From contig JAQUVQ010000005.1 of NCBI GenBank assembly GCA_028693285.1, positions 19,160-83,159 on the forward strand: 64,000 bases of DNA, written 5' to 3'. Every line of letters begins with the position of its first letter. The first letter of the stretch is position 1. Origin of the DNA: Smithellaceae bacterium (GTDB taxonomy: Bacteria; Desulfobacterota; Syntrophia; Syntrophales; Smithellaceae). The notes beneath the pieces were generated by a model that worked only from the letters and a program-made list of their open reading frames with translations, did not search any database and was not told the DNA's origin. Below are positions 36,539-64,000 of the stretch, in pieces. The position numbers were made by a program, and so were the translations under genes.

Positions 36539-37684
36539 ATGGGAAAAAGATTGGCGGTCTGCGCAGTGGCGCAGATTAAAAACCATCCGGATTATCATGA
36601 TTGGCGTTTTCAAAACATGCTGCTCGAATGTTTCGAACCGATCGTGGAGGAGACAAAGGTGACCTTCGACATGGACAAGGGCATCCGGACGATCATCACC
36701 TGCTCGGACGACATGTTCGATGCCCGGACCATATCCGACAACGGGATTACGGATGTCGTCGGGGCGCATTTTCGCGGCGAGGAAAAGATGGCACAGGAAA
36801 GCATCAATGGCCTCGGATACGCCATGGCCTGCATTCTCTCCGGCCATGACGACGTGATCCTTTTTATGGGCCACTGCAAGGAGTCGCAGGGGGAAAGCCG
36901 CAGGATGATTTCCAATCTTGCCTATGATCCCTTCTACTGCAGACCGCTGGGCATGGACTACCACAACGTGGACGCGCTGCAGGCCCGCGCTTACATGGAA
37001 AAATCAAAGGTGACGGACGAGCATCTGGCAAAAGTGGTGGTCCGCTCCAGAGCGAACGGCAAAAAAAATCCCTATGGCCGCGAAAACAAAATCGTCAGTG
37101 AAAAAGACGTGCTGAATTCACCGATGTACTCGGATCCCCTCCGGGAAATGCACATCTATCCGGTCACCGACTGGGCCTACGGAATGCTTTTGTGCAGTGA
37201 AAAGCGGGCCAAGGAGTTCACCAAGAAACCCGTCTGGATCACAGGATACGGCAGCTGCATGGACCGGTATTTCCTCGGCGACCGCGACATCGCTTCGAAT
37301 TTTTCGCTCAAGAACGCCGCCAAGCGGGCGTACGCCATGGCCGGCATTAAAGATCCCCGAAAAGACGTCCAGGTTTTTGAACTGAGCGATCAAGCTGCAC
37401 ATCAGCTCCCGATGTGGGCCGAAGGCGTCGGCATCGCGGAAGAAGGACGGGGCGGCCAGTGGATCGACGATGGCGGCATGGAACGGTTCAATGTCAACCT
37501 GTCCGGCGGCCAGCTCAACGGCAATCCGCTTCTTCTGGGCGGCGCGGCCAGGGCTCTGGAATGCTACTACCAGTTGTCGGGGCAGGCAGGCAAGCGGCAG
37601 GTCAAGGGTGCAAAACGGGCAGTTGCCCAGGCGGCGACCGGCGGGGCCGGGCAGCATCAGGCCGTCATCGTCATGGAAGCGTAG
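36539..37684 (+). CDS. SCPx/DitF-type thiolase-like protein, catalytically degenerate (pair 1, subunit A)
   Basis: GGAAGGAGG upstream of ATG 36539. The thiolase-like fold text is paralogous to 45835-46980. By-eye alignment gives Ala at the nucleophile Cys position and GNP instead of GHP. Confidence 0.8.
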   Translation: MGKRLAVCAVAQIKNHPDYHDWRFQNMLLECFEPIVEETKVTFDMDKGIRTIITCSDDMFDARTISDNGITDVVGAHFRGEEKMAQESINGLGYAMACILSGHDDVILFMGHCKESQGESRRMISNLAYDPFYCRPLGMDYHNVDALQARAYMEKSKVTDEHLAKVVVRSRANGKKNPYGRENKIVSEKDVLNSPMYSDPLREMHIYPVTDWAYGMLLCSEKRAKEFTKKPVWITGYGSCMDRYFLGDRDIASNFSLKNAAKRAYAMAGIKDPRKDVQVFELSDQAAHQLPMWAEGVGIAEEGRGGQWIDDGGMERFNVNLSGGQLNGNPLLLGGAARALECYYQLSGQAGKRQVKGAKRAVAQAATGGAGQHQAVIVMEA

Positions 37685-37696
37685 GGAGGTTGAATC

Positions 37697-38896
37697 ATGG
37701 CACATCAAAAGAAAAACAGAAATGTTGGAATTATCGGCATCGGTCAGACCAAACATTCCAGTCACCGCGAGGATGTCAACCAGCCTGAATTGATCCATGA
37801 AGCGGTCAGCCTGGCCCTGAAAGACGCGAACCTCACCATGAAAGACATTGACTGCGTGGTTCACGGCAATATGGAGCTTTTTGAAATGGTCCACTCGCCG
37901 GATCTCTGGCACGTGCTGGGAACCGGCGCCTACGGCAAGGACTCGATCCGGATCACTACCGGCGGGACGGTCGGGGCCACTCTGTCGTGCGCCTCGGACA
38001 ATCTGGTGGCGTCGGGAATGTACGACATCGTCATGGCCATCGGATTTGAAAAGCTTCAGGAGGGGCACACCACGGGCGGCATCACCAACATGGCCTGCCC
38101 GCTGTGGTTCAGGAAAATTCAGGCGGGAGCGCTCACCGGCTCCTCGGCCTATGACGTGGAGCGGGAATTCGGCCTGGAGCGGGCGGATCGCGCATCGCTC
38201 ATGTACCGGATCATCATGGACAAGCACGCAAGCCTCAATCCCAACGCCCACCGGGCATTCGGCCTGGACTTCAGCCAGATCGACGATCTGATCCGGACTT
38301 CGCCGAAGCTTGTCGGCGAACTGAAGCTCATCGAAATGTGCTCGCAGTCGGACGGCGCCTGCTGCGTGATCTACGCGTGCGAGAAAAAGGCGAAAGAGCT
38401 GTCCAAAATTCCGGTCTGGATCCGCGACCATATCACCGTCCACAAGGAAGAGAACTTCACGATCTTCGGCTACGACCGGAAATATCCGGTGCTGAAAACG
38501 CATAAATTCGCGGCCGAGCAGCTTTTCAAACGCAACGGCATCAATGACCCTTTGAATTATTTTGACGTGTTCGAAATGTATGATCCCGCGACCTGGTGGG
38601 CCATCGACTGGATTCGGGACTTCTTCAATCTGCAGGGGGACGAGCACCTCAGACTCATCGAGGAAAAGGAGATCATGATCGGCGGCAAGATGCCCATCAA
38701 TCCGTCCGGCGGCGTGATCGGATCCAATCCGATCGGCGCGACGGCGCTGGTCCGGGTGGCCGAGGCGGCCCTGCAGGTGCGCGGCAATGCCGGCCCGCAC
38801 CAGATTCCCACCCCGGTCAATCATGCACTCGCGTCAGGGTTTGGCGGCACCATGTGGACCGTGATGACAATGCTCGAAAAGGAACTTAACTGGTAG
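37697..38896 (+). CDS. SCPx-type thiolase-like protein, catalytically degenerate (pair 1, subunit B)
   Basis: The text IGIGQTKHS..., TTGGTVGAT...AIGFEKL and INPSGGVIGSNPIGATA shows SCPx-thiolase family spacing, but with Gly for the nucleophile Cys and Asn for His. Confidence 0.85.
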   Translation: MAHQKKNRNVGIIGIGQTKHSSHREDVNQPELIHEAVSLALKDANLTMKDIDCVVHGNMELFEMVHSPDLWHVLGTGAYGKDSIRITTGGTVGATLSCASDNLVASGMYDIVMAIGFEKLQEGHTTGGITNMACPLWFRKIQAGALTGSSAYDVEREFGLERADRASLMYRIIMDKHASLNPNAHRAFGLDFSQIDDLIRTSPKLVGELKLIEMCSQSDGACCVIYACEKKAKELSKIPVWIRDHITVHKEENFTIFGYDRKYPVLKTHKFAAEQLFKRNGINDPLNYFDVFEMYDPATWWAIDWIRDFFNLQGDEHLRLIEEKEIMIGGKMPINPSGGVIGSNPIGATALVRVAEAALQVRGNAGPHQIPTPVNHALASGFGGTMWTVMTMLEKELNW

Positions 38897-38906
38897 GAGG
38901 ACGATC

Positions 38907-40097
38907 ATGGCAGAATACTGGGGAGTAAAGGTAGAAGATATATTCAATACGATGAAAGACCGGTTCCGCCCCGAAGGCGCCAAGGATGTCGATGCGGTTT
39001 TCGGCTATGACATCGCCGGGGAAGGCAAATGGAAGCTGACGGTAAAGAACAATGCGATGACGCTCGAAAAGGCGGATCAATTATCCGGCTGCATCGCAAC
39101 CATGTCGGCCGACGGCGAGACCTTTGTCGGTGTCAACACGGGCAAAGTCGATGCGACCAACGCCTTTATGAGCGGAAAATTCAAGGTGGAAGGCGACATG
39201 GGCGCCTTCGGAAAGACCGGGAAACTTTTCCGCAAATTCGTCCTCGCCAAAAAGGAGATGACGACCAAAGAGTATCTTGCGGACATGTTCGCCACCATCG
39301 TGCCCCGCTTTAAGGCCAGGGAGGCCGAAGGGCTCGAAGCTTCCTTCGGTTTCGATCTCGGCGGACCGGACGGCGGCAAGTGGACCGTCTTTATTAAGGA
39401 TAAGGTCTGCACGGTTACGGAAACAATTGAAGGCAAGCCGACGGTTACGCTGGAATTCAACGACGCCAGGGATTACGTTGATTTCATCCTTGGAAAGATC
39501 GACGCGCAGAGCATCCTGGCCGCGGGAAAAGCGTCCGCGAAGGGCGATATCAACATGATGGCGTCGAAATGGCCGATCCTGTTTGAGAAATACAAAGATC
39601 CCATGGCCGGCGCTGTTCAGGAACAGGAACTGCTGGTGCTCAAAAAGACCATATCGTTGAACGAGAAGTTTTCAACCGGCCCCATCATGGGCAAGTTCCT
39701 CAAGGGCCTGAAAGAGAAAAAAATATTCGCGAATCGATGCCCCGAGTGCGGCCGGCTGCAGTTGCCGCCGCGGGAAGTGTGCGCGGAATGCCGCGTGCGC
39801 GCCGGTGAGTTCGTGGAGGTCGGGCCCAAGGGGGAAGTCCGATATATGGACGTGGTCTATTACGCCATGCCTGATCCCCTGACCGGCGTGGCCCGGGAAA
39901 CCCCGTATGGCTCCATCTTTATCCGACTGGATGGCTGCAAGGGCAACGAGACCCTGCCGCACTTTATCCGGAAGGATCAGATCGAAAAGATTCAGAGGGG
40001 CTGGAATGAAAAGAAAGGGACCCGCGTCCGCCCCGTCTGGGAGGAAAAACGGATCGGAGACATCTGGGACATTAAATACTTTGAGATTGATGAGTAA
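38907..40097 (+). CDS. SCP2 - SCP2 - DUF35 (Zn-ribbon/OB-fold) fusion protein
   Basis: There are two SCP2-like repeats (AVFGYDIAGEGKWKL...NAFMSGKFKVEGDMGAFGK and ASFGFDLGGPDGGKWTV...AAGKASAKGDINMMAS). They are followed by a DUF35 module with CPECG-N10-CAEC and an OB-fold tail (YGSIFIRLDG). Confidence 0.8.
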   Translation: MAEYWGVKVEDIFNTMKDRFRPEGAKDVDAVFGYDIAGEGKWKLTVKNNAMTLEKADQLSGCIATMSADGETFVGVNTGKVDATNAFMSGKFKVEGDMGAFGKTGKLFRKFVLAKKEMTTKEYLADMFATIVPRFKAREAEGLEASFGFDLGGPDGGKWTVFIKDKVCTVTETIEGKPTVTLEFNDARDYVDFILGKIDAQSILAAGKASAKGDINMMASKWPILFEKYKDPMAGAVQEQELLVLKKTISLNEKFSTGPIMGKFLKGLKEKKIFANRCPECGRLQLPPREVCAECRVRAGEFVEVGPKGEVRYMDVVYYAMPDPLTGVARETPYGSIFIRLDGCKGNETLPHFIRKDQIEKIQRGWNEKKGTRVRPVWEEKRIGDIWDIKYFEIDE

Positions 40098-40108: not shown

Positions 40109-41536
40109 ATGACAACCAAAAAGACCGCAGGAGTCGAAGACAGCTATCAAATCGAAGGCAAAATGGCGCTCCCTTATTCTTACTTTGCCGGCCGGGTGGG
40201 CAGCAAATTCATTACGACCCTCCGGGATCAGAAGAAAATCATGGGAGTGAAATGCCCCGCCTGCAATACGGTCTATGTGCCGCCGCGGCAGGTCTGCGAC
40301 GTGGACTTTACCGATATTCGCGACGCGTGGGTTGAATTGGAAAGCACGGGCACGGTGAAGAATTTCACGGTCGTGCGTTATGACGACAAGCATCTGCCGA
40401 GAAAGGCGCCGTTTGTCCTGGCCCTCATTCAACTGGAGGGGGCCGGCACGCCGTTTGCGCACATTCTGGAGGAGTGCAAAATCGAAGACGTCAGGATCGG
40501 AATGAAGGTCGAGGCGGTATTCGCGAAGGAAACGACCCAAACCATTCTTGATATCGATCACTTCAAACCCGCGGCGGAAAAGGCGTCGATTCATGAGGTG
40601 AACGCGCGCAGGAAACAATGGGTTCCGACCGATGAACCCGCCGAAGCATCAACCAGAAAAGGAGGGAAGCCCGATATGTCCAAGCCCGTTATTATTACCG
40701 CGGCGCTCACCGGCGCCGCTACGATGAGAAATCAGAACCCGTCCGTACCCTACAAACCGGAGGAATTCGCGGAAGAAGCCTACAAGTGCTGGAAAGCCGG
40801 CGCCGCGATGGTGCATGTGCATGCCCGGGAAGACGGAGGAATGGCCACCCATGACCACGCGAGGATCAAGGCGACCTATGATGCCATCAAGGATAAGTGT
40901 CCGGAACTCATCGTCTGTCTGAGCTCCGCCGTCGGCATGGGCAAGACCGCCGAGCAGCGGATCTCCCAGATTGTCTATATCAAACCCGACATGGCCTCGC
41001 TCAACACCAACACCATGAACTTCGGCATCGTGGACCGCAAAACCGGCAAGATCTTCATCGACTATGTGTTTGAAAACACTTTCGGCATGCTGCAGGACTT
41101 CGGCAAAGTTATGGAAGAAAACGGCGTGAAGCCGGAAATCGAGTGCTACGACATGGGCGGTCTGGACAATACCCTCATGATCGGCAAGCAGGGCATTTTC
41201 AGCGATCCGATGAACTTCAATTTCGTCTGGGGCGTCGCCGGCGGGCAGCAGTTCAGGACCGAAGCCTTCATCGCCATGATGAACGCGCTTCCCCCGAAGG
41301 CGAACTTCACCACCTGCGGCGTCGGGATGGATCAGTATCCCTGCATCATGCAGTCCTGCATTCTCGGCGGGCACATGAGAGTCGGTCTGGAGGACAACAT
41401 CCGGATGCCCAACGGGGCGCTGGCCAAGGGGAGTTACGAGCAGGTGGAGGTGGCGGTGAACATCGCCAACTGTCTGGGACGCCCGGTGGCGACCACGGAC
41501 GAGGCTCGTCTCATTATGGGGCTCAGGAAGCGGTAA
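40109..41536 (+). CDS. DUF35 (Zn-ribbon/OB-fold) - BKACE (beta-keto acid cleavage enzyme, DUF849) fusion protein
   Basis: The N-terminal DUF35 has CPACN...VCDVD and APFVLALIQLEG. From about aa 190 the text is BKACE (PVIITAALTGAAT, AAMVHVHARED, ECYDMGG, GGHMRVGLEDN). Confidence 0.8.
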   Translation: MTTKKTAGVEDSYQIEGKMALPYSYFAGRVGSKFITTLRDQKKIMGVKCPACNTVYVPPRQVCDVDFTDIRDAWVELESTGTVKNFTVVRYDDKHLPRKAPFVLALIQLEGAGTPFAHILEECKIEDVRIGMKVEAVFAKETTQTILDIDHFKPAAEKASIHEVNARRKQWVPTDEPAEASTRKGGKPDMSKPVIITAALTGAATMRNQNPSVPYKPEEFAEEAYKCWKAGAAMVHVHAREDGGMATHDHARIKATYDAIKDKCPELIVCLSSAVGMGKTAEQRISQIVYIKPDMASLNTNTMNFGIVDRKTGKIFIDYVFENTFGMLQDFGKVMEENGVKPEIECYDMGGLDNTLMIGKQGIFSDPMNFNFVWGVAGGQQFRTEAFIAMMNALPPKANFTTCGVGMDQYPCIMQSCILGGHMRVGLEDNIRMPNGALAKGSYEQVEVAVNIANCLGRPVATTDEARLIMGLRKR

Positions 41537-41546
41537 AAAAACGGGT

Positions 41547-41587
41547 GGTTCGCCGCGGATGCCGGACAAGGGCGCCTGCGGCGAACC
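41547..41587 (+). other. Intercistronic stem-loop (10-bp perfect GC-rich stem, 21-nt loop)
   Basis: GGTTCGCCGC (41547-41556) pairs with GCGGCGAACC (41578-41587). It lies between the BKACE fusion and the ligase gene and has no U-tract. Confidence 0.5.
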
Positions 41588-41615
41588 GCTCTGGATCGAT
41601 TCGGGAGAACGCGCA

Positions 41616-43466
41616 ATGAAAATCGCAGAAAAAACCATGAACGACGTTTTTAGGAACCGCGTTCAAAAATATCAAGACCGTCTTGCCGTTGAAAAAAAGA
41701 TGAACGGCGTGTGGCACACCGCCACCTGGAACGAATACTACGAGCGGTCGCGCGCCGTCGGCATGGGGCTGTATGCCCTGGGGATTCGCAAAGGAGACAT
41801 GGTGTCCATTCTGTCCGAAAACCGGCTGGAATGGATCTACACCGACATGGGCGCGCTGGGAATCGGCGCCTGCGTGATTCCGATCTATCCGACGCTGACG
41901 GCCGAGGAGATCGAGTACATCCTCAATAATTCCGAATCAAAGGTTATTGTGACGGAAGACCGCGGCCAGCTCAAAAAAGTGCTGGCCGTCATTGAGAGGT
42001 GCCCCGGCATTGAAAAGATCGTCGTGATGGAGGAAAAGGACGCTCAGGGGCATCCCGGCGTGATGAGCTTTACGGCGCTGATGGAACTGGGAAGGAAAAA
42101 GCATGCCGAAGACCCTTCCCTTTTTGAGAAGCTCTCCCGGGAAGTGACGGTCGATGATCTGGCTACTCTCGTATATACGTCCGGTACGACCGGCTTGCCC
42201 AAGGGCGCCATGATCAGCCACGGGAACGTTTTCTGGATTGTGAAATCCCTGGACGCGGTCCAGCCTCCGTTTGCCGACGATCAGGACGTGCTGGTTGCCT
42301 TTCTTCCCCTCTCCCACGTGTTTCAGCGGATTCCCGGACATTTTTATGCCATGCACCGCGGGATCACCATCTCCTATGCCCAGTCGATCGACACGCTTCT
42401 GACGGACTTCGAAGAAAAGAGGCCGACCATGATTCTGGCCGTTCCGCGCGTGTGTGAAAAAGTGTACCAGAAGATCATTACGCAGGTGAAGGAACAGTCC
42501 CCTTTCAAGCAGAAGGTGTTTTACTGGGGGCAGTGTGTCGGCAACCGGATCAGCGAACTTCGCGAGAATCACAAGCCCATTCCGCCGGGGCTCAGACTGA
42601 AATACAAAATCGCCTATGCCGTCATCTTTAAAAAGCTCCAGCAGAAGCTGGGCGGACGGTTGAAATGGATGACGGCTGCCGGCGCGCCCACGGCGCCGGA
42701 AATTATCCGGTTCTTCAACGCCGCCGGAATTACGGTCATTCAGGGATACGGCATGACCGAAACGACGGCGCCGGCGTCCATCCAGTCCCTGTCCGATTTT
42801 CGCATCGGCACGACCGGCAAGCCGATGCCCGGCCAGGACATCAGGATCGCCGAAGACGGAGAGATTCTGATCAAGGGCGGAAATGTCATGAAGGGATACT
42901 GGAAGCTGCCGGAGGAAACCCGCGCCGTATTCACGCCGGACGGTTACCTGATGTCGGGCGACATCGGGAAGTTCGACGAGGAAGGCAATCTCCTCATCAC
43001 GGACCGCAAGAAGGATCTTCTCATCACCTCAGGAGGCAAAAACATCGCTCCGCAGATGATCGAAGGGCTGTTCAAGTCCGATCCGCTGTTTACCCAGTTT
43101 ATCGTGATCGGTGAAAGGAAAAAATACCTGACTGGATTGTGCAACATCGATCTGGAGATTGCCGCGATGATCGCCGACGATGAAAAGATCCCCTATCAGA
43201 AACCGGCGGACCTGCTGGACAACGACCGCTTCCTGGCGATTGTCAGAAACCATGTCGAGGAGCGCAACACGCATCTGGCCAAGTACGAAACCATCAAGGA
43301 TTACCGGATCATCAAAACGGATTTTTCCCAGGAGGGCGGCGAACTGACGGCGACGCTCAAACTGAAGCGCAAGGTGATTAATGAGAAGTACCAGGATCTG
43401 ATTGACGAGATGTACGGGAAGGAAGCGGTCGATGAGCTTTACGGGCAAAAGCAGTCCCGGGCGTGA
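41616..43466 (+). CDS. Long-chain acyl-CoA synthetase (AMP-forming, FadD/ACSL-like)
   Basis: The likely start is ATG 41616 (MKIAEKTMNDVF). It has the AMP-binding motif YTSGTTGLPKGA, GYGMTET, and C-terminal TDRKKDLLITSGGKNIAP. Confidence 0.9.
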   Translation: MKIAEKTMNDVFRNRVQKYQDRLAVEKKMNGVWHTATWNEYYERSRAVGMGLYALGIRKGDMVSILSENRLEWIYTDMGALGIGACVIPIYPTLTAEEIEYILNNSESKVIVTEDRGQLKKVLAVIERCPGIEKIVVMEEKDAQGHPGVMSFTALMELGRKKHAEDPSLFEKLSREVTVDDLATLVYTSGTTGLPKGAMISHGNVFWIVKSLDAVQPPFADDQDVLVAFLPLSHVFQRIPGHFYAMHRGITISYAQSIDTLLTDFEEKRPTMILAVPRVCEKVYQKIITQVKEQSPFKQKVFYWGQCVGNRISELRENHKPIPPGLRLKYKIAYAVIFKKLQQKLGGRLKWMTAAGAPTAPEIIRFFNAAGITVIQGYGMTETTAPASIQSLSDFRIGTTGKPMPGQDIRIAEDGEILIKGGNVMKGYWKLPEETRAVFTPDGYLMSGDIGKFDEEGNLLITDRKKDLLITSGGKNIAPQMIEGLFKSDPLFTQFIVIGERKKYLTGLCNIDLEIAAMIADDEKIPYQKPADLLDNDRFLAIVRNHVEERNTHLAKYETIKDYRIIKTDFSQEGGELTATLKLKRKVINEKYQDLIDEMYGKEAVDELYGQKQSRA

Positions 43467-52581: not shown

Positions 52582-52642
52582 CCGTTCAGACGAAGGCGCG
52601 CGCTTTCCGACCGGAGACATGACGCTGCAAGGAGAAAGACCC

Positions 52643-53090: not shown

Positions 53091-53477
53091 ATGGCCATTG
53101 AAAAAGGACAGACCTTCAGCGGAAGCGAGAAGGTCGATAAATACAGGCCCATTTACTACGCCGGCGCATCCGGCGATTTCAATCCGATTCATATCGATCC
53201 CGAATTCGGGAAAATGGTCGGGCTTGGAGGGGCGATTCTTCAGGGATTGTGCACACTTGCCTTTGCGTCCAAAACCGTCACCGACTGGGCGGGAGATCCC
53301 GGGAAGCTCAAGAGGCTCAAATGCCGGTTCAGCGCTCCGGTGCTGATGGAAGATACGATTTCGGTCCAGGGAACCGTCACGGATGTGCAGTCGGGACGCG
53401 CCAGGATTGATCTGAAGGTGGTCAACCAGAACGGCGTGGAAGTGCTTCAGAAGGTTGAAGCCGAGGTCGAAGCGTAA
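53091..53477 (+). CDS. MaoC-like (R)-specific enoyl-CoA hydratase, catalytic subunit
   Basis: AGGAGG upstream of ATG 53091. It has the catalytic motif YAGASGDFNPIHID. Confidence 0.8.
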   Translation: MAIEKGQTFSGSEKVDKYRPIYYAGASGDFNPIHIDPEFGKMVGLGGAILQGLCTLAFASKTVTDWAGDPGKLKRLKCRFSAPVLMEDTISVQGTVTDVQSGRARIDLKVVNQNGVEVLQKVEAEVEA

Positions 53478-55492: not shown

Positions 55493-55531
55493 AAGGAGGA
55501 ACCGGAACCGTAACGGTTCCTCCTTTTTTTA
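55493..55531 (+). terminator. Rho-independent terminator
   Basis: AAGGAGGAACCG (55493-55504) pairs perfectly with CGGTTCCTCCTT (55514-55525). The loop is 9 nt and the stem runs into a T7 tract, 25 nt after the ACAD stop. Confidence 0.85.
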
Positions 55532-57738: not shown

Positions 57739-58386
57739 ATGAAAGCATTAAAGGGAATTCTGATTTTTGCCGTTGTTTTGATTTGTCTGTCGGCCGTGGT
57801 GACCGGAATCAATATTCTTCAGAAGGGCGGCGCCTGGGACGGAAGAAGCATGGAGGAGATTCTGGGCGTTGCGCCTCAAAAGGCGACCCTGGAGGACATT
57901 GGCAAGCTCGACAAGGCGGAGATCTTCCAGCTTTACTATGCCGCTTCCGCGCCTTCCTTTCACGATTTCCGGGGCGAATTTGCCGCGGTGACGGTGGATG
58001 TCGGCATTCTGGCGTCCAGCGCGGCTTATTTCACCCATCACTTTTTCGGTCCGGGACGCTGGGAGGGCAAGGCCTTCAACCCGTCTGAAAAAGACAGGGG
58101 ATACGGGTACAATATTTTCAGGGATGCCGGGGGCAAAGTTTACCGGACGCGCAGAATGGACACGGAAATCGGACCGTCGGATTACGACGGCAAACCCGCC
58201 TTCAAACTTAATTACGGCGCCTACAATACAGGGACCGTTCATTCCATGCGCGACGAGATCCGCAGGATCAACGATCATCTGTTTCTCGGTCTCGGGTATA
58301 TGGCGCTGGGCGGAGGGAAAATCAATCCGGCTCCCTTTGCGCTCATCGGGCCGGCGAAGCAATGGGTAGGCGTCGATCAATCCTGA
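57739..58386 (+). CDS. Membrane-anchored GXWXG / DUF4334-like protein
   Basis: The likely start is ATG 57739, giving an N-terminal TM helix (ILIFAVVLICLSAVVTGI). It has a G-R-W-E-G (GxWxG) motif and C-terminal text RRINDHLFLGLGYM resembling DUF4334. Confidence 0.45.
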   Translation: MKALKGILIFAVVLICLSAVVTGINILQKGGAWDGRSMEEILGVAPQKATLEDIGKLDKAEIFQLYYAASAPSFHDFRGEFAAVTVDVGILASSAAYFTHHFFGPGRWEGKAFNPSEKDRGYGYNIFRDAGGKVYRTRRMDTEIGPSDYDGKPAFKLNYGAYNTGTVHSMRDEIRRINDHLFLGLGYMALGGGKINPAPFALIGPAKQWVGVDQS

Positions 58387-58390: not shown

Positions 58391-60469
58391 ATGAGCATGC
58401 ACTACAACCTCCTTTTTTCAGAAGGCCGGATCGGCAGCGTGATTTTGCGCAACCGCGTGGTTCTTCCTCCCCTGGAAGTGGGGATGGCCAATTTTGACGG
58501 GACCCCCTCGGAACAGCTCGTCGCCTATTATGAAGAACGCGCGAAAAACGGCCTCGGACTGCTGATGACCGGCATTACCCGCGTCAATGAACGTCACGGC
58601 GCGGGCCTGCCGCGCCAGCTGGCCATGACGTCCGATAGGCACATCGAACCCTTTGCCCGCATGGTTGAACGAATTCACCGCCACGGCACAAAAATTTTCT
58701 GCCAGCTTCATCACCCAGGCCGTCAGAGCAATTCGCTGATGATCGGCTCCTGGCCGCTGATGGAACGGATCGGCCGCCTCTGGCCGGGGTACTGGAAATA
58801 TTTTTTCAAGCTGGTGCCCGCGGCGGAAAAATTTGCCCAAACCGGCCTGGTGCCGGCCGTTGTGGCGCCTTCGGCCGTGGCCTGCGAATATTCCAAACAG
58901 AAAACCCGGGCTTTGTCGACCCGGGAAGTCCGCAGCCTGGTGAACGACTTTGTTCGGGCCGCGCGCCGTGTTCAGCAGGCCCGCGCCGATGGCGTGGAAC
59001 TGCACGCCGCCCACGGCTATCTCATCCAGCAGTTTCTGAGCCCCCGCACCAACCGGCGAACGGATGAATACGGCGGATCGATTGAAAACCGCATGCGCTT
59101 CATTCTGGAGATCATCCGCGGCATCCGCGGCCTTTGCGGTCCGGATTTTCCGATCGTTGTCCGTCTGGCGGTGGACGAATACTACCGGTGTGTCGGCCAG
59201 CCCGGCGAGGGCATTGAACTGGCCCTGGGCGTGGAGATCGCAAAACGCCTGGAACAGGCCGGCATCGATGCCATCGATGTTTCCTCGGCCAATTATGAAA
59301 CCATGAACTACTGGCTGGAGCCCGCCTCCTTTGAGACGGGATGGCGCAAGAATCTGGCCCGGGCCGTAAAGGAAGCGGTCGGGATTCCGGTGCTGGCCGC
59401 CAATGTGATTCGCAGCCCGGAACAGGCCGAGGCGCAGCTTCAGGAGGGGTGCCAGGATTTTGTGTGCCTGGGACGACCGCATCTGGCGGATCCGGCCTGG
59501 ACCAGAAAAGCCGCCGAAGGCCGCGAACGGGACATTCGGCGCTGCATCAGCTGCCTGTGGTGCTTTGAATCCTTTCTGACCAATGCCGCCAAAGGCGAGA
59601 CGCTGGAATGCGCCGTCAATCCGCGGCTGGGCCGTGAGCGCGAGACCGCCGAGCCGCTGAAGAACGGAGCCGGCCGCGTGGTGGTCATCATCGGTGCGGG
59701 GCCCGCCGGACTTTCCGCGGCCGGGATTCTGGGCCAGCGCGGATTCAAACCCATCGTTCTGGAAAAGAACGCCGCCGTCGGCGGCCAGCTGCAGCTTGCC
59801 AACAAGCCTCCCAAAAAGGAAAAGATCAACTGGTGCTTTGCCGATCTCGAGCATGCCGCCCTGCAAAACGGGGCTGAAATCCGTCTGAATGCCGAGGCAA
59901 CGCCCGCATCCGTGAAGGCTCTCGCTCCCTATGCCGTCATCATTGCCACCGGAGCGAAAGCCGTCGTCCCGCCCGTCGAAGGCGTTCATCTTCCGCATGT
60001 CTGCACCGTCACCGAAATCCTGAACGGCTCCGTCCGGCTTAAAAATCAGCGGGTCGCCGTGATCGGCTCGGGGATGACCGGCCTGGAAACGGCGGAGAAG
60101 CTGGCGGAGGAAGGCAACCGCGTCCTGGTGGCGGAAATGATGGACCGGATCGCGCCGGGCGTCCATCCGCAGCATCTGGACGATATCCTTCCGCGCCTGA
60201 AAGCCTATTCCGCGGATTTCATCACCGGCCACAAGCTTGCCAAAATTTCGGCCGGCGTCGTTTTTCTGGAAAGCGTTGCCGGCGGAAAACGCCGCGAAGA
60301 AAAGGCCGATGCCGTTGTTCTTTCCGTCGGCGTGCAAAGCAACAGCGCGCTGGCCGCGGCGCTTCAACCTCACTTTCCCAGACTCCGCGTCATCGGCGAT
60401 GCTCGCAGGGTCGGCCGCATTCCCCAAGCCGTGCGGGATGGTTTTGACACAGCCTGGAATTTGATGTAA
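58391..60469 (+). CDS. OYE-family NADH:flavin oxidoreductase with FeS and FAD/NAD domains (2,4-dienoyl-CoA reductase / enoate reductase-like)
   Basis: 692 aa. It has an N-terminal TIM-barrel OYE domain (HHPGRQ, AAHGYLIQQFLSPRTN.RTDEYGGS). The FeS motif is CISCLWC...EC. The C-terminal half carries Rossmann motifs (VVIIGAGPAGLSAA, VAVIGSGMTGLE). Confidence 0.85.
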   Translation: MSMHYNLLFSEGRIGSVILRNRVVLPPLEVGMANFDGTPSEQLVAYYEERAKNGLGLLMTGITRVNERHGAGLPRQLAMTSDRHIEPFARMVERIHRHGTKIFCQLHHPGRQSNSLMIGSWPLMERIGRLWPGYWKYFFKLVPAAEKFAQTGLVPAVVAPSAVACEYSKQKTRALSTREVRSLVNDFVRAARRVQQARADGVELHAAHGYLIQQFLSPRTNRRTDEYGGSIENRMRFILEIIRGIRGLCGPDFPIVVRLAVDEYYRCVGQPGEGIELALGVEIAKRLEQAGIDAIDVSSANYETMNYWLEPASFETGWRKNLARAVKEAVGIPVLAANVIRSPEQAEAQLQEGCQDFVCLGRPHLADPAWTRKAAEGRERDIRRCISCLWCFESFLTNAAKGETLECAVNPRLGRERETAEPLKNGAGRVVVIIGAGPAGLSAAGILGQRGFKPIVLEKNAAVGGQLQLANKPPKKEKINWCFADLEHAALQNGAEIRLNAEATPASVKALAPYAVIIATGAKAVVPPVEGVHLPHVCTVTEILNGSVRLKNQRVAVIGSGMTGLETAEKLAEEGNRVLVAEMMDRIAPGVHPQHLDDILPRLKAYSADFITGHKLAKISAGVVFLESVAGGKRREEKADAVVLSVGVQSNSALAAALQPHFPRLRVIGDARRVGRIPQAVRDGFDTAWNLM

Positions 60470-60502: not shown

Positions 60503-61033
60503 ATGAGCATCATCAAGGACGTTCAATCCGGGAAAAAGCCGCTCAAGCGGGCGTATGTAGCCATTTTTCTGTGGTTCACCGGCCGCGCCATTCAGGCGGC
60601 GGCAAAGGTCGATTCCGAGGTCAAAAAAGAATTCGAAAAACTTCCCGAGGATTTCACCTTTTCTCTGGGCTGTCTGCCCTGCGGCCCCTGGATGGTGGTG
60701 GGCCGGGAAAAGGGCGTCGTGAAGTATCTGGGCGGAGATTCCCGCGGACGGCCCGTGCAGGTTCGCCTGGCCATCAAGAGCCTGGACGCGGGCTTTCTGA
60801 TTCTCTCCTTTCAGGAAAGCACGGCGCTCGCCACGGCGCGCAACCGGCTGATCACGGACGGGGAAATTCCCCAGGCGCTGGCCATTATCCGCATTCTCGA
60901 TATTGTGGAAGTTTACCTTCTGCCCAAGCTCATCGCCTCTCTGGCCGTGAAGCGGTATCCTTCCTGGTGGTCGTTCGGCCGCAAACTCGGCGGCCGCATC
61001 GGTGTTTACACCCGCACGCTGCTGGGCATCTAA
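60503..61033 (+). CDS. Hypothetical protein, possibly SCP2-like
   Basis: 176 aa. The segment TALATARNRLITDGEIPQALAIIRIL resembles the C-terminal SCP2 motif (A...G.l...GD...a). The assignment is tentative. Confidence 0.4.
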   Translation: MSIIKDVQSGKKPLKRAYVAIFLWFTGRAIQAAAKVDSEVKKEFEKLPEDFTFSLGCLPCGPWMVVGREKGVVKYLGGDSRGRPVQVRLAIKSLDAGFLILSFQESTALATARNRLITDGEIPQALAIIRILDIVEVYLLPKLIASLAVKRYPSWWSFGRKLGGRIGVYTRTLLGI

Positions 61034-61048: not shown

Positions 61049-62215
61049 ATGAATTCCGCAGCCGTTTTTGATTTTACCTGCCCCGTCAAGACCAATTCCG
61101 GAAACAAGGCGCTGGAGCACCTGCCCGTGGAGCTGGCCGGACTCAATGCCGTGAACCCTCTGATCGTCGCCAACGCGCGGGCGGTCGGCCCCAAAGCCGT
61201 CCGGACGCTGATGAACGCATTCGGCGATTCGAAAATGACGCTGGGCCTTTTTGAAGGCGTCACCGAAGCAGCCGATCTCGGCGTCGTGGATCATTTGAAA
61301 AACATCTGCCTGGAAAAAAAATACGATGCCTTCATCGCGCTGGGCGGGGGGAAAGCCGCCGATGTCGCCAAGGTGCTGAATCTTGCGGTTTCGCTGAAAA
61401 CGCCGGACGCGCGGCAGCTTTCGCCCAAGACGCCCGTCCGCAAGCGCCTGCTGCCGCTGGTGGTCGTGCCGACGGCCGGAGCGGACGGCCTGGAAACCTC
61501 GGGCTTTGCCCATCTGAACCGGATGATTTTTTCCTCCGAATTTCTCGCGCCCGGCCTGGCCGTGCTGGATTCGCGCCTGGCGAGAGCAAGAAAAGGAATC
61601 CTGATGGCCGCGACGGGCCTTGCCGCGCTGGGCCGCGCCGTGGAATCGCACGTCAGCGCCGACAGAAACCCTTTCCAGAAAGCCTATTCCTTTGCCGCCG
61701 TCCGCTTTGTCCGGGAAAACCTTCCGGCCGCGGTCGCCGATCCCGGGAATAAAAAGGCGGCGCTTGCCGTGCTCAACGCCGCGGCGATGTCCGGCTGCGC
61801 CTTTTCCAATGCGGCCTCCGGCAGGCTCCACAAACTCGGTCAGGTGTTTTACGAACTGCTGGGCATTCCCCAGGGCGTGATCATGGGCATGTGCCTGTCC
61901 CGCGTTCTGGAAGATGGCTTTCGGGAAGGCTCCTGTGACCCGGCGGCTCTTCTTCAACCCCTGGCCGGAGACGACGCGTTTGCGCGAACACCTGCCGGAA
62001 AGAGGGCGGAGGCCGCTCTTGCCCTCCTGAACCGTTTTCTGGAAGAGCTTCGGGGCGCTCTGGGCAAGGATCTGCCGAAGAGCCTTTCGGAGGCGGGAGT
62101 GTCCGGCTACCGGAAGGAGGAAATTCTGGATGTGCTGGGAAAAGACGAAGACGGCCATTACCTGCGCGGCGTCGTGGAAGGGATGGCCGGAGGAAAACGG
62201 GAAAGGAAGGGGTGA
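61049..62215 (+). CDS. Iron-containing alcohol dehydrogenase-family protein lacking metal ligands
   Basis: It is a Fe-ADH fold with the GGGKAADVAK motif. The ligand motifs read TGLAALGRAVES and LHKLGQ...IPQG where the paralog has TGMDAMSHAVEA and VHNLGH...VPHG. Confidence 0.8.
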   Translation: MNSAAVFDFTCPVKTNSGNKALEHLPVELAGLNAVNPLIVANARAVGPKAVRTLMNAFGDSKMTLGLFEGVTEAADLGVVDHLKNICLEKKYDAFIALGGGKAADVAKVLNLAVSLKTPDARQLSPKTPVRKRLLPLVVVPTAGADGLETSGFAHLNRMIFSSEFLAPGLAVLDSRLARARKGILMAATGLAALGRAVESHVSADRNPFQKAYSFAAVRFVRENLPAAVADPGNKKAALAVLNAAAMSGCAFSNAASGRLHKLGQVFYELLGIPQGVIMGMCLSRVLEDGFREGSCDPAALLQPLAGDDAFARTPAGKRAEAALALLNRFLEELRGALGKDLPKSLSEAGVSGYRKEEILDVLGKDEDGHYLRGVVEGMAGGKRERKG

Positions 62216-62220
62216 TTCCG

Positions 62221-63468
62221 ATGCTTTTGCCGGATTATTATGAGTTCTGCTGTCGTGTGAAAATTGTCGCGGGTCATGACGCCCTGGAAAAAATACCGGA
62301 TCTGCTCATCGAGCGCGGCGCAAAGAAACCACTCGTCATCACGGACAAGGGAGTGGCGGGCGCGGGTCTCATCGATATCGTTTCCCGGGCGCTCGGGGAC
62401 CGCGTGCAGGCGGATCTGATCGCCGACGATGTTCCCCCCGATTCGGATCTCCGGGTCGTCAACCGGCTGGCGCGCCTTTACCGGGACAACGCCTGCGACG
62501 CGATCATCGCCGTCGGCGGCGGTTCCGTCATGGACACGGCCAAGGGGATCAACATCGTTGTTTCGGAAAACGCGGAAGACCTGATGGCCTTCAGCGGCGT
62601 CGGCGCGCTCAAGCGCCCCCTGAAGCCCCTGGTGGCCGTCCCGACCACCGCCGGCACGGGGTCGGAAGTCACGCAGGTGGCCGTTATCAAGGATCACGAG
62701 AAGCATTTGAAGATGGCCTTTGGGAGTTATTTTCTGCTGCCCGACATTTCCATCCTCGATTCCCGAATGACCCTGACGATGCCGCCTTTCATCACGGCCA
62801 TGACCGGCATGGACGCCATGAGCCACGCCGTGGAAGCCTACTATTGCCTTCAGAAAAATCCGCTCTCCGACGCCCACGCGCTTTCCGCCGTCGGCATGAT
62901 TTACCGGCACCTGCCGCTGGTCGTGAAAAATCCGGATGATCGCGAAGGCCGCCTGGCCATGGCGGTCGCCGCCTGCCTGGCGGGCATCGCCTTTTCCAAT
63001 TCCATGGTCGGACTGGTTCACAATCTCGGCCATGCGACCGGCTCCGTCTGCGGCGTTCCCCATGGCCTCTGCATGGCCATCCTTCTGCCCTACGGCCTGG
63101 AGTACAACCTGCACAAAATGGCGGACGTCATGGCGGAGCTCCTGCTTCCCATGGCGGGAGAGCAGGTGTATCTGGCCACGCCTGCGGAGCAGAGAGCCCA
63201 AAAAGTCGTATCCCTGATCCGCGGGCTCAATGAAGACCTCCACGCCATCACCGGCGGACGGCACGCCAGATGCCTGCAGGAGATCAAAGACCGCGAAGGG
63301 AAGCCGTCCGTCCCCCGGGACGTGCTGCCGCAAATCGCCGCCGCTGCGCTGCTCGACGGAGCGTCTATTTACAATCCGGAAGACACGGACTACGAGGACA
63401 ACCTGATGGTGCTGGAAGCGGCCTGGGAAGGGAAGCCTCTGGACAGGTCTCGCGTAAAAAAAGGCTGA
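62221..63468 (+). CDS. Iron-containing alcohol dehydrogenase
   Basis: It has GGGSVMDTAK, TGMDAMSHAVEAY and VHNLGHATGSVCGVPHG, so all four canonical metal ligands are present. The start is ATG 62221 or 62212. Confidence 0.9.
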   Translation: MLLPDYYEFCCRVKIVAGHDALEKIPDLLIERGAKKPLVITDKGVAGAGLIDIVSRALGDRVQADLIADDVPPDSDLRVVNRLARLYRDNACDAIIAVGGGSVMDTAKGINIVVSENAEDLMAFSGVGALKRPLKPLVAVPTTAGTGSEVTQVAVIKDHEKHLKMAFGSYFLLPDISILDSRMTLTMPPFITAMTGMDAMSHAVEAYYCLQKNPLSDAHALSAVGMIYRHLPLVVKNPDDREGRLAMAVAACLAGIAFSNSMVGLVHNLGHATGSVCGVPHGLCMAILLPYGLEYNLHKMADVMAELLLPMAGEQVYLATPAEQRAQKVVSLIRGLNEDLHAITGGRHARCLQEIKDREGKPSVPRDVLPQIAAAALLDGASIYNPEDTDYEDNLMVLEAAWEGKPLDRSRVKKG

Positions 63469-63487
63469 TGAACGAAAGGGAGCAGTC

Positions 63488-64000
63488 ATGATAAAACCTT
63501 ACATGGGAAAAATCCTCATGGTGGATTTGTCCAGCCGGACCATGACGGAAGAAGAAATCCCCGACCGGGTGTATGAACAGTATCTGTCCGGGATGGGGCT
63601 GGGCGCCTATATCCTCTACCATCGCATGCCGGCCGGCGCCGACCCGCTGGGTCCGGACAATATTCTCGGTTTCTGCTCGGGATTGCTCACGGGAACCGGC
63701 AGCCTGTTTTCCGGCCGCTGGACGCTTGTGGGGAAATCGCCGCTGACCGGGTGCTGGGGCGACGCGAACTGCGGCGGCACCTTTTCTCCGGCCATCAAGC
63801 ATTCCGGCTATGACGCCATTTTCTTCACCGGCATCAGTTCCGGCCCCGTTTATCTGTATGTGAAAAACGGCAAAGCTTCTCTGAAAGACGCGGCCGATCT
63901 CTGGGGGCGGGATGCCGTCGAGACGGAAGAAGCGCTCAAGAAGCAGTACGGCCCCAAAGCCGCCGTGGCCGTCATCGGCCCCGCCGGAGAGAAGCTTTCG
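63488..64000 (+). CDS. aor: Aldehyde:ferredoxin oxidoreductase (tungsten AOR family), N-terminal part; continues past the window
   Basis: Own translation from ATG 63488: MIKPYMGKILMVDLSSRTMTEEEIPDRVYEQYLSGMGLGAYILY...GRWTLVGKSPLTG...GYDAIFFTG. This is the typical AOR N-terminal domain. Confidence 0.85.
   Translation, partial: MIKPYMGKILMVDLSSRTMTEEEIPDRVYEQYLSGMGLGAYILYHRMPAGADPLGPDNILGFCSGLLTGTGSLFSGRWTLVGKSPLTGCWGDANCGGTFSPAIKHSGYDAIFFTGISSGPVYLYVKNGKASLKDAADLWGRDAVETEEALKKQYGPKAAVAVIGPAGEKLS

Follow-up and report, generated by a model that had tools for sequence, protein, structure and literature searches.

A conserved cluster of Cys-less thiolase-fold pairs, DUF35 scaffolds and a DUF35-BKACE fusion in Smithellaceae and Spirochaetota: a candidate for anaerobic catabolism of branched or alicyclic acyl-CoA esters

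Introduction

Among the major carbon pools that are only slowly degraded in digesters, peat, sediments and aquifers affected by oil are branched and polycyclic lipids, such as isoprenoids (phytol among them), hopanoids, naphthenic-type acids and the side chains of sterols and bile acids; the gene-level basis of their mineralisation without oxygen is largely unknown. The closest described systems are the steroid and bile-acid side-chain modules, namely ChsE1-ChsE2/ChsH1-ChsH2/Ltp2 and Scd/Shy/Sal/Sad, which comprise (i) a pair of acyl-CoA dehydrogenases (ACADs), (ii) a two-part MaoC hydratase, (iii) a Cys-less protein of the SCP2-thiolase fold together with DUF35, (iv) a CoA ligase, and (v) an aldehyde-oxidising enzyme downstream. 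In the steroid aldolases TcLtp2 and CtSal, the catalytic base is the Tyr of the motifs YDHF and YDCY, respectively, and the nucleophilic Cys is likewise a Gly in Sal (PMC12329534). The present work concerns a gene cluster assembled from the same kinds of parts in a Smithellaceae bacterium (assembly GCA_028693285.1), found in a stretch of 64,000 nucleotides of contig JAQUVQ010000005.1 (positions 19,160 to 83,159, forward strand), which is called the window hereafter and provides all coordinates given below. The cluster is a concrete and widespread candidate for oxygen-free lipid degradation, and its carriers belong to two abundant uncultured guilds, i.e., syntrophic Smithellaceae and anaerobic Spirochaetota.

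Respective to the steroid modules, several differences are apparent. The thiolase-fold proteins of the cluster form alpha/beta pairs, whereas the steroid-module aldolases are homodimers; its DUF35 domains are stand-alone or fused to SCP2 or BKACE, whereas those of ChsH2 and Shy are fused to the hydratase; and its hosts are strict anaerobes with an aldehyde:ferredoxin oxidoreductase (AOR), where the steroid modules use an NAD-dependent aldehyde dehydrogenase. An earlier reading of the window from its letters alone (the sequence-only reading) had drawn an analogy with ChsE/ChsH/Ltp. This analogy is sound for the manner of working, because the features of the Cys-less proteins, the ACAD pair, the split MaoC and the CoA-transferase are all borne out, but it does not extend to family membership, because the second catalytic residues of the aldolases are missing, DUF35 is not carried by the hydratase and the cluster proteins do not reach the scores of the steroid equivalog models. 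Judged by its sequences, the cluster thus works like the steroid side-chain modules and is not a member of those families.

DUF35, made of a Zn ribbon and an OB fold, is an experimentally established scaffold of thiolase-fold multi-enzyme complexes, in which it binds the thiolase-fold dimer and recruits further enzymes (PMC12329534; bioRxiv 10.1101/2024.07.05.601840). The association of DUF35 with thiolase-fold enzymes is shared by the archaeal thiolase/3-hydroxy-3-methylglutaryl-CoA (HMG-CoA) synthase complex, the Sulfolobus fatty-acid synthase complex, PhlABC and BbsAB, but these known complexes use a catalytic Cys, whereas the proteins paired with DUF35 in the cluster have none and the recruited enzymes are covalently fused to DUF35. 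A last point of comparison is the BKACE family, whose reaction converts a beta-keto acid and acetyl-CoA into an acyl-CoA and acetoacetate.

From the gene content and motifs described below, the core of the cluster is proposed to be a catabolic operon for a beta-oxidation-like cycle, in which C-C cleavage would be carried out by aldol- and Claisen-type enzymes and not by a thiolase, a proposal for and against which the evidence is evenly balanced. Profile searches against characterised pathways returned no equivalog-level match, in line with the sequence-only reading, which did not recognise the gene order, and no paper was found in the literature library searched that describes the cluster, pairs BKACE with DUF35 or links the cluster to Smithella.

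A conserved core within a composite gene island

From 36539 to 64000, the window carries 26 consecutive genes, all on the plus strand, with identical metagenome contigs giving gene calls that agree with the open reading frame (ORF) list. Their tight packing had been pointed out before and is real, the median intergenic gap being 19 bp and 21 out of 26 gaps being below 50 bp. The two largest gaps, of 152 bp (53478-53629) and 132 bp (55469-55600), lie one on each side of the gene for a large ACAD, AC18, and the second holds the terminator that had been placed at 55.5 kb:

55504..55530, + strand: intrinsic-terminator-like hairpin with a T-run (7-bp GC-rich stem, GGAACCGTAACGGTTCC then TCCTTTTTTT)

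The hairpin proper covers 55504-55520. Together, the 152- and 132-bp flanking gaps are compatible with AC18 being a transcription unit of its own between the core and the genes beyond the terminator (unit 2). With respect to gene families, Pfam supports 23 of the 26 domain calls of the sequence-only reading; a PP2C-like call proved weak, a GXWXG/DUF4334 call rests on a GPGRWEG motif, and an SCP2-like call in unit 2 did not stand.

The conserved unit, however, is not the single 26-gene island that had been described. Relatives of the DUF35-BKACE fusion protein were collected with an alignment of that protein, in a scan limited to a single genome for each species; it gave 259, and the best 80 loci were compared (individual loci and contigs are designated by L and a number). 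All 80 carry the cluster and all are species-level metagenome-assembled genomes (MAGs) of uncultured organisms, about half being Smithella, Smithellaceae, Syntrophaceae and other "delta" bins and about half Spirochaetota (Leptospirales-like), with single Desulfomonilia, Bacteriovoracaceae and Chloroflexota bins in addition. Across these some 80 MAGs from several phyla, the order that is kept reads PHP-T1-T2-SCP2D-DUF35/BKACE-(ECH)-LIG-CtA-CtB-D8-T9-T10-D11-U12-TetR-AC14-AC15-MaoN-MaoC, where SCP2D is an SCP2-DUF35 fusion, ECH a generic crotonase and LIG an acyl-CoA ligase. The first gene precedes the island as originally delimited:

35875..36456, + strand: PHP-domain metallo-phosphoesterase, 193 aa (Pfam PHP and PHP_C)

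This protein has weak NCBIfam similarity to pAp phosphatase and to RNase RNM, and its orthologue stands directly 5' of T1 in most of the 80 loci, including L007, L008 and L093; because of this synteny, the start of the cluster is set at 35875, one gene earlier than before. The conserved unit is therefore an 18-gene core running from PHP (35875) to MaoC (53477), with the large ACAD and most of unit 2 outside. AC18 was considered as a core member and rejected, since its orthologue in a related MAG (82% identity) is separated from the cluster by more than 120 kb on the contig of L027. As such, the 26-gene island is a composite of a conserved mobile core, lineage-specific accessory genes and an unrelated large ACAD.

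Sequence conservation between hosts is high. Across the loci sharing this cluster type, which span two phyla, identity is 81-99% for T10 and 80-98% for CtB; the window DUF35-BKACE protein is 96% identical to its counterpart in two Smithellaceae MAGs, and in Spirochaetota loci (L033, L039-L045, L059) identity to the window counterparts is 72-95% for the proteins of the cluster and 85-95% for T10. Many of these Spirochaetota contigs are megabase-sized (e.g., 1.74 Mb for L045 and 3.7 Mb for L059), and this, together with the high cross-phylum identity, favours horizontal transfer over mis-binning. The comparison thus points to a recent transfer of the whole operon between Smithellaceae and Spirochaetota.

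Variation around the common order concerns a few positions. The ligase is kept without the CoA-transferase in 8 of the 80 loci and the CoA-transferase without the ligase in 7. A generic crotonase follows BKACE and precedes the ligase or transferase in 45 of the 80 (e.g., L007:11502-12281 and L008:11435-12211), and it is the only recurrent extra family among neighbours of the 80 loci, where no carboxylase was found. The window has no crotonase at the BKACE-ligase junction, the gap there being 22 bp; a crotonase encoded elsewhere in the window (12324-13091, - strand) was considered as a relocated ECH and rejected, being only 28% identical. In L093, L083 and L087, DUF35 and BKACE have a gene each, and three Spirochaetota MAGs (L054, L055, L090) have, besides the full cluster, a second and minimal copy, T1-T2-SCP2D-DBKACE-AC14-AC15, DBKACE being the DUF35-BKACE fusion. 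A compact variant, in Chloroflexota, reads AOR-LIG-THL-DUF35-T9like-T10like-DUF35-BKACE-CtA-CtB, where THL is a true thiolase. Next to the core, AOR and ligase are found repeatedly, in four arrangements that differ from one another. Downstream of MaoC, the content varies by lineage: one Spirochaete has a further thiolase-like gene, a 196-aa protein with weak similarity to DUF35, and an ACAD, and one "delta" MAG has ferredoxin-like genes, ligases and an AOR.

Two side observations were made on these loci. In a Spirochaete and a "delta" MAG (L095:12166-14204; L093:1-866), a 478-aa thiolase-like protein that reaches the cut-off of NCBIfam PRK06365 is followed by the 196-aa weakly DUF35-like protein, which is 28% identical to D11 (E 1e-7), and this pair does not occur in the window. 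In the long-read MAG of L028, two ORFs stand in place of one for each of PHP, the ligase and T9, probably as a result of assembly frameshifts and not because these genes are pseudogenes.

Thiolase-fold proteins without a nucleophilic Cys

Four genes of the core encode proteins of the thiolase fold, arranged as two adjacent alpha/beta pairs:

36539..37684, + strand: T1, alpha-type thiolase-fold protein without the catalytic Cys, Tyr and His (Pfam Thiolase_C_1 only)
37697..38896, + strand: T2, beta-type Cys-less thiolase-fold protein, putative retro-aldolase subunit (motifs, orthologue alignment)
45835..46980, + strand: T9, alpha-type Cys-less thiolase-fold protein with GHP kept, partner of T10 (EGDGTYG, Cys replaced by Gly)
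46992..48149, + strand: T10, beta-type Cys-less thiolase-fold protein, second putative retro-aldolase subunit (motifs, orthologue alignment)

The two pairs are paralogous, T1 being 35% identical to T9 and T2 42% identical to T10. An SCP2-thiolase-like fold is supported by Pfam (Thiolase_C_1 and Thiolase_N), and PDB matches include SCP2-thiolases, archaeal thiolases, BbsB and Ltp2 (6OK1), with PhlC among the matches of all four proteins. The combination of a catalytic Cys nucleophile and an acid/base Cys that identifies a true thiolase is absent from T1, T2, T9 and T10 alike, and the BbsB equivalog model gives them 60-146 bits against a cut-off of 750. The claim that Cys-less thiolase-like proteins lie alongside DUF35 genes is thus borne out by the motif alignments.

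The beta-type subunits are those in which the motifs are best preserved. Over 65 orthologues of T2, TTGGT.G (Cys replaced by Gly; TTGGTVG in the window), EMYDP and NPIG are invariant, as are TTGGTTG, Y.QPYS and NPIG over 48 orthologues of T10, which is among the most conserved proteins of the cluster; in both, NPIG takes the place of GHP. At the first position of the former HDCF motif of SCP2-thiolases, a Tyr is invariant in T2 (65/65) and T10 (48/48), and in the alignment it falls on the catalytic Tyr of YDHF/YDCY in the aldolases, so that this Tyr and the Gly replacing the nucleophilic Cys are features shared with the steroid and bile-acid modules. The second catalytic residue is not, since T2 has YDPA and T10 has YQPY, with an invariant Pro at position 3, compared with YDHF plus Tyr344 in Ltp2 and YDCY in Sal; because that residue is absent, T2 and T10 are not orthologues of Ltp2 or Sal.

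The alpha-type subunits are less constrained. In T1, the nucleophile region reads ESINGLG, the HDCF position SDQA, and GHP has become GNP; a motif residue that is His in 48 of 64 orthologues is Gln in the window species. In T9, the residue at the position of the aldolase Tyr is Tyr in 44 of 49 orthologues, Ser in the window species and Cys or His in others, the Ser being no assembly error because it is present in all independent contigs of the species. T1 is probably the non-catalytic partner of T2, and T2 and T10 are the likely catalytic subunits, because the Tyr is invariant in them, absent in T1 and variable in T9. In terms of enzymology, the pairs would be heteromeric lyases, Cys-less and of the thiolase fold, that make up a subfamily separate from Ltp2 and Sal.

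Among the sequences inspected, those closest to T2 and T10 are encoded on actinobacterial plasmids. Plasmids pF1D10B of Streptomyces clavuligerus (L097) and pLP1 of Rhodococcus qingshengii (L098) carry the same alpha/beta Cys-less pair with DUF35, which is a tandem protein in pF1D10B; in pLP1, ACAD-ACAD-MaoN-MaoC come before the pair, and a CaiB-type CoA-transferase, an SDR (short-chain dehydrogenase/reductase) and a ligase come after it. The longer member of the plasmid pair is 40% identical to T10 and displays the Cys-to-Gly replacement, E.Y.PFS and NPIGA(T/S), as in T2 and T10. Ltp3 and Ltp4, which are implicated by genetics, are cited as aldol-lyases required only for C24-branched sterol side chains (PMC6273163). 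Pairs of the Ltp3/Ltp4 type share with the cluster the adjacent thiolase-fold genes (about 355 and 390 aa) plus DUF35, and the plasmid pairs may correspond to Ltp3/Ltp4, themselves without biochemical characterisation. Unlike the cluster, the actinobacterial pair loci are devoid of BKACE, of the SCP2 fusion and of a glutaconate-type transferase, and their hosts are aerobic.

DUF35 proteins and their fusions to SCP2 and BKACE

The thiolase-fold pairs are accompanied by four DUF35 genes, of which two encode fusion proteins:

38907..40097, + strand: SCP2D, fusion of two SCP2 domains and DUF35 (Zn ribbon/OB; Pfam SCP2 x2 and zf-ChsH2; CxxC..CxxC from residue 278)
40109..41536, + strand: DUF35-BKACE fusion (Pfam OB_ChsH2_C, zf-ChsH2 and BKACE 1-274/274)
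45351..45818, + strand: D8, stand-alone DUF35 protein (Pfam zf-ChsH2 and OB_ChsH2_C; Cys4 ribbon)
48170..48634, + strand: D11, stand-alone DUF35 protein (Pfam; Cys4 ribbon)

The CxxC...CxxC ribbon pattern is present in three of the four DUF35 domains of the cluster. Whatever the variant, each thiolase-like pair has two DUF35 to go with it, and this holds for the unfused forms and for the tandem-DUF35 protein of Streptomyces as well. The SCP2x2-DUF35 architecture is rare: a set of 1.84 billion proteins yields only 27 representatives at E<=1e-30. The 8 SCP2-DUF35 clusters that were looked up consisted of metagenome or MAG sequences only, with no cultured host among them.

The BKACE domain (PF05853) is full length (E 7e-91), as expected of the TIM-barrel domain of the family, and its HxH and E/D residues align with those of Kce (2Y7D) and are invariant in 14 fusions, although the Glu of the Kce TGAE segment is Ala in the window protein. 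Its scores stay below the cut-offs of the NCBIfam equivalogs, i.e., Kce (266/382), 3-oxoadipate (195/350) and 3,5-dioxohexanoate (177/430). Unlike Kce, the BKACE of the cluster is fused to DUF35 or lies beside it and is set between thiolase-fold pairs, and even the compact Chloroflexota locus has it adjoining DUF35, the CoA-transferase and a thiolase-like pair. It is the first BKACE seen fused to a DUF35 scaffold, next to what would be a lipid-binding SCP2-DUF35 adaptor.

Predicted activation, dehydrogenation and hydration of the acyl group

The remaining genes of the core would supply the other steps of an acyl-CoA catabolism, together with a regulator and a conserved protein of less obvious kinship:

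41559..43466, + strand: LIG, AMP-forming acyl-CoA ligase, long-chain, FadD11-like (Pfam AMP-binding and AMP-binding_C_3)
43511..44506, + strand: CtA, CoA-transferase subunit A of the glutaconate type, 331 aa (Pfam CoA_trans)
44518..45288, + strand: CtB, CoA-transferase subunit B, 256 aa (1POI_B, E 6e-45)
48634..49536, + strand: U12, conserved 300-aa protein, weakly PP2C/SpoIIE-like (profile matches)
49555..50187, + strand: TetR-family regulator inside the operon (Pfam TetR_N and TetR_C_6; syntenic in most loci)
50207..51358, + strand: AC14, ACAD subunit without the canonical catalytic Glu (all ACAD domains in Pfam)
51409..52581, + strand: AC15, ACAD subunit with the catalytic Glu (Pfam; IGEGA)
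52619..53080, + strand: MaoN, non-catalytic hot-dog subunit, HadA/ChsH2-N-like, 153 aa (Pfam FAS1_DH_region and MFE-2_hydrat-2_N; NCBIfam HadA-like)
53091..53477, + strand: MaoC, catalytic (R)-specific hydratase subunit and end of the core (Pfam MaoC_dehydratas; motif YAGASGDFNPIH)

For the ligase, the best NCBIfam match is FadD11, below its cut-off. The glutaconate type that had been assigned to the CoA-transferase holds, the best PDB match of CtA being 1POI_A (E 3.9e-43, compared with about 1e-9 for 3-oxoacid transferases), and the next closest relatives of CtA/CtB after the glutaconate CoA-transferase 1POI are AibAB and IpdAB. FEAGG of CtB aligns with the VESG segment of GctB, which holds the catalytic Glu54, so that the catalytic Glu of CtB is in place. 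With GctAB, AibAB and IpdAB, the transferase of the cluster thus has in common its subunits and the aligned Glu. AibAB is a 3-methylglutaconyl-CoA decarboxylase, and AibB is without the catalytic Glu that CtB possesses. The context differs as well, as GctAB belongs to glutamate fermentation and CtA/CtB to what appears to be a lipid-like acyl-CoA catabolism.

The two ACADs are encoded side by side, as originally described, with IGGGT in AC14 facing the catalytic IGEGA of AC15 and IGGGT invariant in 28 orthologues, and the pair looks heteromeric in view of these motifs. Orthologues of AC15 are 67-94% identical, those of Spirochaetes MAGs included. The steroid ACAD model IpdE2 gives 65-74 bits against a cut-off of 450 for AC14 and AC15, whose best matches are generic models of the butyryl/acryloyl-CoA type, below their cut-offs. 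The division of the hydratase into two subunits also stands, since the hydratase-2 motif occurs in MaoC and not in MaoN, in keeping with HadA- and HadB-like NCBIfam matches, and Pfam finds no DUF35 on MaoN of the kind carried by ChsH2 and Shy.

U12 has no Pfam match, even at E<=10. Its invariant columns are D58, GGDS129-132, DG181-182 and DD229-230; a profile built from 21 orthologues finds PP2C proteins as its four best PDB matches, weakly (E 0.1-0.9), and a comparison with a SpoIIE protein by hhalign covers 73 columns (P = 0.001). A single-sequence AF2 model was unusable (pLDDT 32).

The large ACAD and the accessory genes of unit 2

Beyond MaoC, the window continues with the genes found to be outside the conserved core for the most part:

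53630..55468, + strand: AC18, large ACAD, 612 aa, with an Acyl-CoA_dh_C domain (Pfam; YEGT motif)
55601..56854, + strand: THL, true thiolase, acetyl-CoA C-acyltransferase (Pfam Thiolase_N and Thiolase_C; TIGR01930, 429 bits for a cut-off of 240)
56900..57712, + strand: classical SDR (Pfam adh_short)
57739..58386, + strand: U21, membrane-anchored or secreted protein with a GXWXG motif (hydrophobic N-terminus; invariant GPGRWEG)
58391..60469, + strand: enoate reductase of the FadH/BaiCD family, i.e., an old yellow enzyme (OYE) with Fe-S and flavin/NAD parts (Pfam Oxidored_FMN and Pyr_redox_2)
60503..61033, + strand: U23, 176-aa protein (ORF; no family match)
61049..62215, + strand: protein of the Fe-dependent alcohol dehydrogenase (Fe-ADH) family with a divergent C-terminal half (Pfam Fe-ADH and ADH_Fe_C)
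62221..63468, + strand: Fe-dependent alcohol dehydrogenase (Pfam; called start in agreement with the 415-aa product in L009)
63488..64000, + strand: AOR, N-terminal 171 aa, cut by the window end (Pfam AFOR_N)

Close homologues of AC18 are of the Smithella type only. THL is the only true thiolase among the thiolase-like genes of the cluster. Some accessory genes recur on the other side of the core in relatives: an SDR orthologue (70-72% identical) lies upstream of PHP in L028 and L078, orthologues of U21 (53-61%) do so in L021, L022, L026, L028, L044 and L078, and a distant AOR homologue (39-42% over the N-terminal 171 aa) is found upstream of PHP in several Syntrophaceae. The OYE, U23 and the two Fe-ADH were seen beside the core only in close Smithellaceae relatives. 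On the sister contigs L009-L012, which extend past the window end, AOR has its full length of 643-648 aa and is followed by an adjacent 4Fe-4S ferredoxin, a cpYpsA-HAD hydrolase and then unrelated genes.

Regarding individual proteins, U21 has no Pfam match at E<=10 and a PDB profile search returned chance matches only. The OYE protein carries a CxxCxxCx15C motif (Cys385, Cys388, Cys391 and Cys407), and the models for BaiCD (423 bits versus 825), mycofactocin-OYE and bilirubin reductase all stay below their cut-offs. For the Fe-ADH at 61049..62215, all NCBIfam matches are far below the cut-offs. U23 is the gene that had been called SCP2-like, an assignment that is not supported here, because no Pfam (E<=10) or NCBIfam match was obtained and hhalign with the SCP2 domains of the cluster gives a probability of 0.2-0.3%, i.e., below 1%; its single-sequence AF2 model was unusable (pLDDT 35).

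Proposed mechanism

The substrate is probably a branched or alicyclic lipid-like acid. Its activation would fall to the glutaconate-type CoA-transferase or else to the long-chain ligase, the genomes keeping one, the other or both; the AC14/AC15 heteromer would desaturate the CoA ester and MaoN/MaoC would hydrate the product. A hindered or tertiary 3-hydroxyacyl-CoA formed in this way would be barred from the dehydrogenase/thiolase route and could be split by retro-aldol cleavage, for which the candidate catalysts are the paralogous heterodimers T1-T2 and T9-T10, each predicted to be clamped by two DUF35 proteins. In the T1-T2 complex, one DUF35 partner would carry the two SCP2 domains holding the hydrophobic substrate, and the other would carry BKACE.

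What BKACE does in such a complex may be described by a scheme resembling HMG-CoA lyase, where a 3-hydroxy-3-alkylglutaryl-type CoA ester would be cleaved into acetyl-CoA and a labile beta-keto acid, which BKACE would convert together into a shortened acyl-CoA and acetoacetate, the latter then being activated and split by the true thiolase THL. Tentatively, HMG-CoA-lyase-like chemistry can be regarded as the most parsimonious account of the tethering of BKACE, which it explains because the two products of the lyase are both substrates of BKACE. A possible, and for the moment doubtful, extension is that of a lyase-BKACE metabolon, in which the Cys-less heterodimer would pass both products on to the DUF35-tethered BKACE while the SCP2 domains hold the lipid tail. 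The glutaconate-type CoA-transferase and the presence of a true thiolase are compatible with the HMG-CoA-lyase-like scheme, which also fits the tertiary-alcohol cleavage of a 3-substituted glutaryl-CoA proposed for the anaerobic limonene pathway (PMC12583861). In the methanogenic limonene study, Smithellaceae appear as users of fatty acids and necromass only, and the lss and lrc operons consist of different genes (PMC12583861).

In unit 2, the two Fe-ADH and AOR with its ferredoxin would oxidise an alcohol or an aldehyde, either as the entry step or as a product of the aldolase, and the SDR, the FadH-like reductase and the thiolase would handle unbranched or unsaturated stretches. The sequence-only reading had AOR and the alcohol dehydrogenases feeding an alcohol or aldehyde into the pathway, which is plausible since AOR and ligase recur in four arrangements; equally, by analogy with Sad in the proteobacterial bile-acid route, AOR could re-oxidise an aldehyde released by the aldolase. 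Were the metabolon true, strict anaerobes would have a thiolase-independent way past the branches of isoprenoids, hopanoid or steroid side chains and alkyl-alicyclic acids, encoded by an operon that Smithellaceae and Spirochaetota living in digesters, peat and aquifers would have exchanged horizontally. Aldolases and BKACEs are, besides, sought as C-C bond biocatalysts.

Several points weigh against the proposal of an aldol- and Claisen-type catabolic operon. All hosts are known as MAGs and none is cultured. We infer an aldolase activity and no more than that, because the acid partner of the Tyr differs from that of Ltp2 and Sal in both T2 (YDPA) and T10 (YQPY). In the cluster and its recurrent flanks, no gene was found whose product would turn a simple branched chain into an intermediate of the 3-alkylglutaryl type, nor any carboxylase. 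The scheme gives T9-T10 no specified role, and both T9 and T1 carry lineage-specific motif substitutions; likewise, the PHP and PP2C-like proteins, both conserved, have no place in it. Finally, the substrate specificity of BKACE and of the CoA-transferase is not legible from sequence.

Alternative explanations

An anaerobic removal of the side chain from a steroid, a bile acid or a hopanoic acid, similar to Scd/Shy/Sal/Sad and ChsE/ChsH/Ltp2 with AOR replacing the aldehyde dehydrogenase, would follow the same module logic as the cluster, i.e., ACAD pair, split MaoC, Cys-less protein plus DUF35, ligase and aldehyde oxidiser (PMC12329534). The SCP2 domains speak for it, as does the OYE, whose best NCBIfam match, below cut-off, is the bile-acid enzyme BaiCD, and several MAG names hint at digesters and peat or fen, habitats (if rightly deduced) where sterols and hopanoids are expected. 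We nonetheless deem such a substrate unlikely, since the models for steroid thiolase, IpdE2, HsaA and BaiCD all score far below their cut-offs, the YDHF and YDCY motifs of Ltp2 and Sal are not kept, neither the window nor the flanks of the 80 loci hold ring-degradation or anaerobic C25-hydroxylase genes, and BKACE and the glutaconate-type transferase have no role in known steroid side-chain routes.

An isoprenoid route, starting from phytol, polyprenols or isoprenoid acids, would give almost all enzymes of the window something to do, the FadH-like reductase, the Fe-ADHs, AOR and BKACE among them. Alcohol dehydrogenase, AOR and ligase would yield a 3-methyl-2-enoyl-CoA and the hydratase a tertiary 3-hydroxy-3-methylacyl-CoA; the aldolase would release acetyl-CoA and a methyl ketone, the ketone would be carboxylated to a beta-keto acid by an enzyme encoded elsewhere, and BKACE would then give an acyl-CoA and acetoacetate, after which the FadH-like reductase, ECH, SDR and thiolase would process the chain to the next branch. 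The crotonase following BKACE in 45 of the 80 loci accords with this, and so does the fact that 6,10,14-trimethylpentadecan-2-one is a known bacterial product of phytol whose anaerobic carboxylation has been proposed. What makes the route improbable is that no ketone or acyl-CoA carboxylase exists in the cluster or among its recurrent neighbours, that close Smithellaceae relatives are the only ones in which the OYE, U23 and the two Fe-ADH were seen next to the core, and that the tethering of BKACE to a thiolase-fold dimer is left unexplained.

Much less can be said for an ordinary fatty-acid beta-oxidation island of a syntroph with the odd genes as annotation noise. Smithellaceae do express enzymes of long-chain fatty-acid degradation in methanogenic consortia (PMC12583861), and AC18, THL, the SDR and the ligase are generic parts, but these generic parts are precisely the non-conserved ones. 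Lacking the nucleophilic Cys, the four conserved proteins of the thiolase fold are incapable of thiolysis, and BKACE, SCP2-DUF35, the Glu-less ACAD and the glutaconate-type transferase are under strong purifying selection across phyla, so that this explanation is very unlikely to be the right one.

Were the machinery to run in the condensing direction, for biosynthesis or acyl transfer, its precedents would be the archaeal thiolase/DUF35 fatty-acid or HMG-CoA synthase complexes and the Friedel-Crafts acylase PhlABC. DUF35 scaffolds do occur in condensing complexes, PhlC is matched by all four thiolase-like proteins and the BKACE reaction is reversible in principle. Condensing thiolases and HMG-CoA synthase, however, need the catalytic Cys that is absent from T1, T2, T9 and T10, PhlC itself uses a catalytic Cys, and the neighbours of these genes (TetR, ACADs, ligase, CoA-transferase and AOR) are catabolic, which makes a condensing role highly improbable.

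Lastly, the six-carbon dismutation of propionate by Smithella, in which BKACE would cleave 3-oxohexanoate to butyryl-CoA and acetoacetate, is suggested by the host being a Smithellaceae bacterium, by the acceptance of short 3-oxo acids by BKACEs and by the fact that, to our knowledge, the genes of the Smithella propionica pathway are unknown, but it is hardly credible when the same cluster occurs at 70-95% identity in many Spirochaetota and other phyla, the SCP2 domains and the long-chain-type ligase suggest hydrophobic substrates, and the core contains neither a Claisen-condensing thiolase nor a mutase.

Genomic surroundings

Upstream of PHP lie a P-type ATPase, a protein of the metallo-beta-lactamase fold and a radical-SAM protein, all unrelated to the cluster. 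A radical-enzyme system that is distinct from the cluster lies some 10 kb upstream of it (22296-25536, + strand), with two HGD-D subunits resembling 2-hydroxyacyl-CoA dehydratase or class I benzoyl-CoA reductase followed by a BcrAD_BadFG activator ATPase. Five co-directional ORFs on the minus strand (15539-20220) end in a Peripla_BP_6 binding protein, on which their look of a Liv-type ABC transporter rests. Near the beginning of the window (421-4849, - strand), an AcrB-type RND efflux pump of 1060 aa is encoded together with an HlyD-type adaptor.

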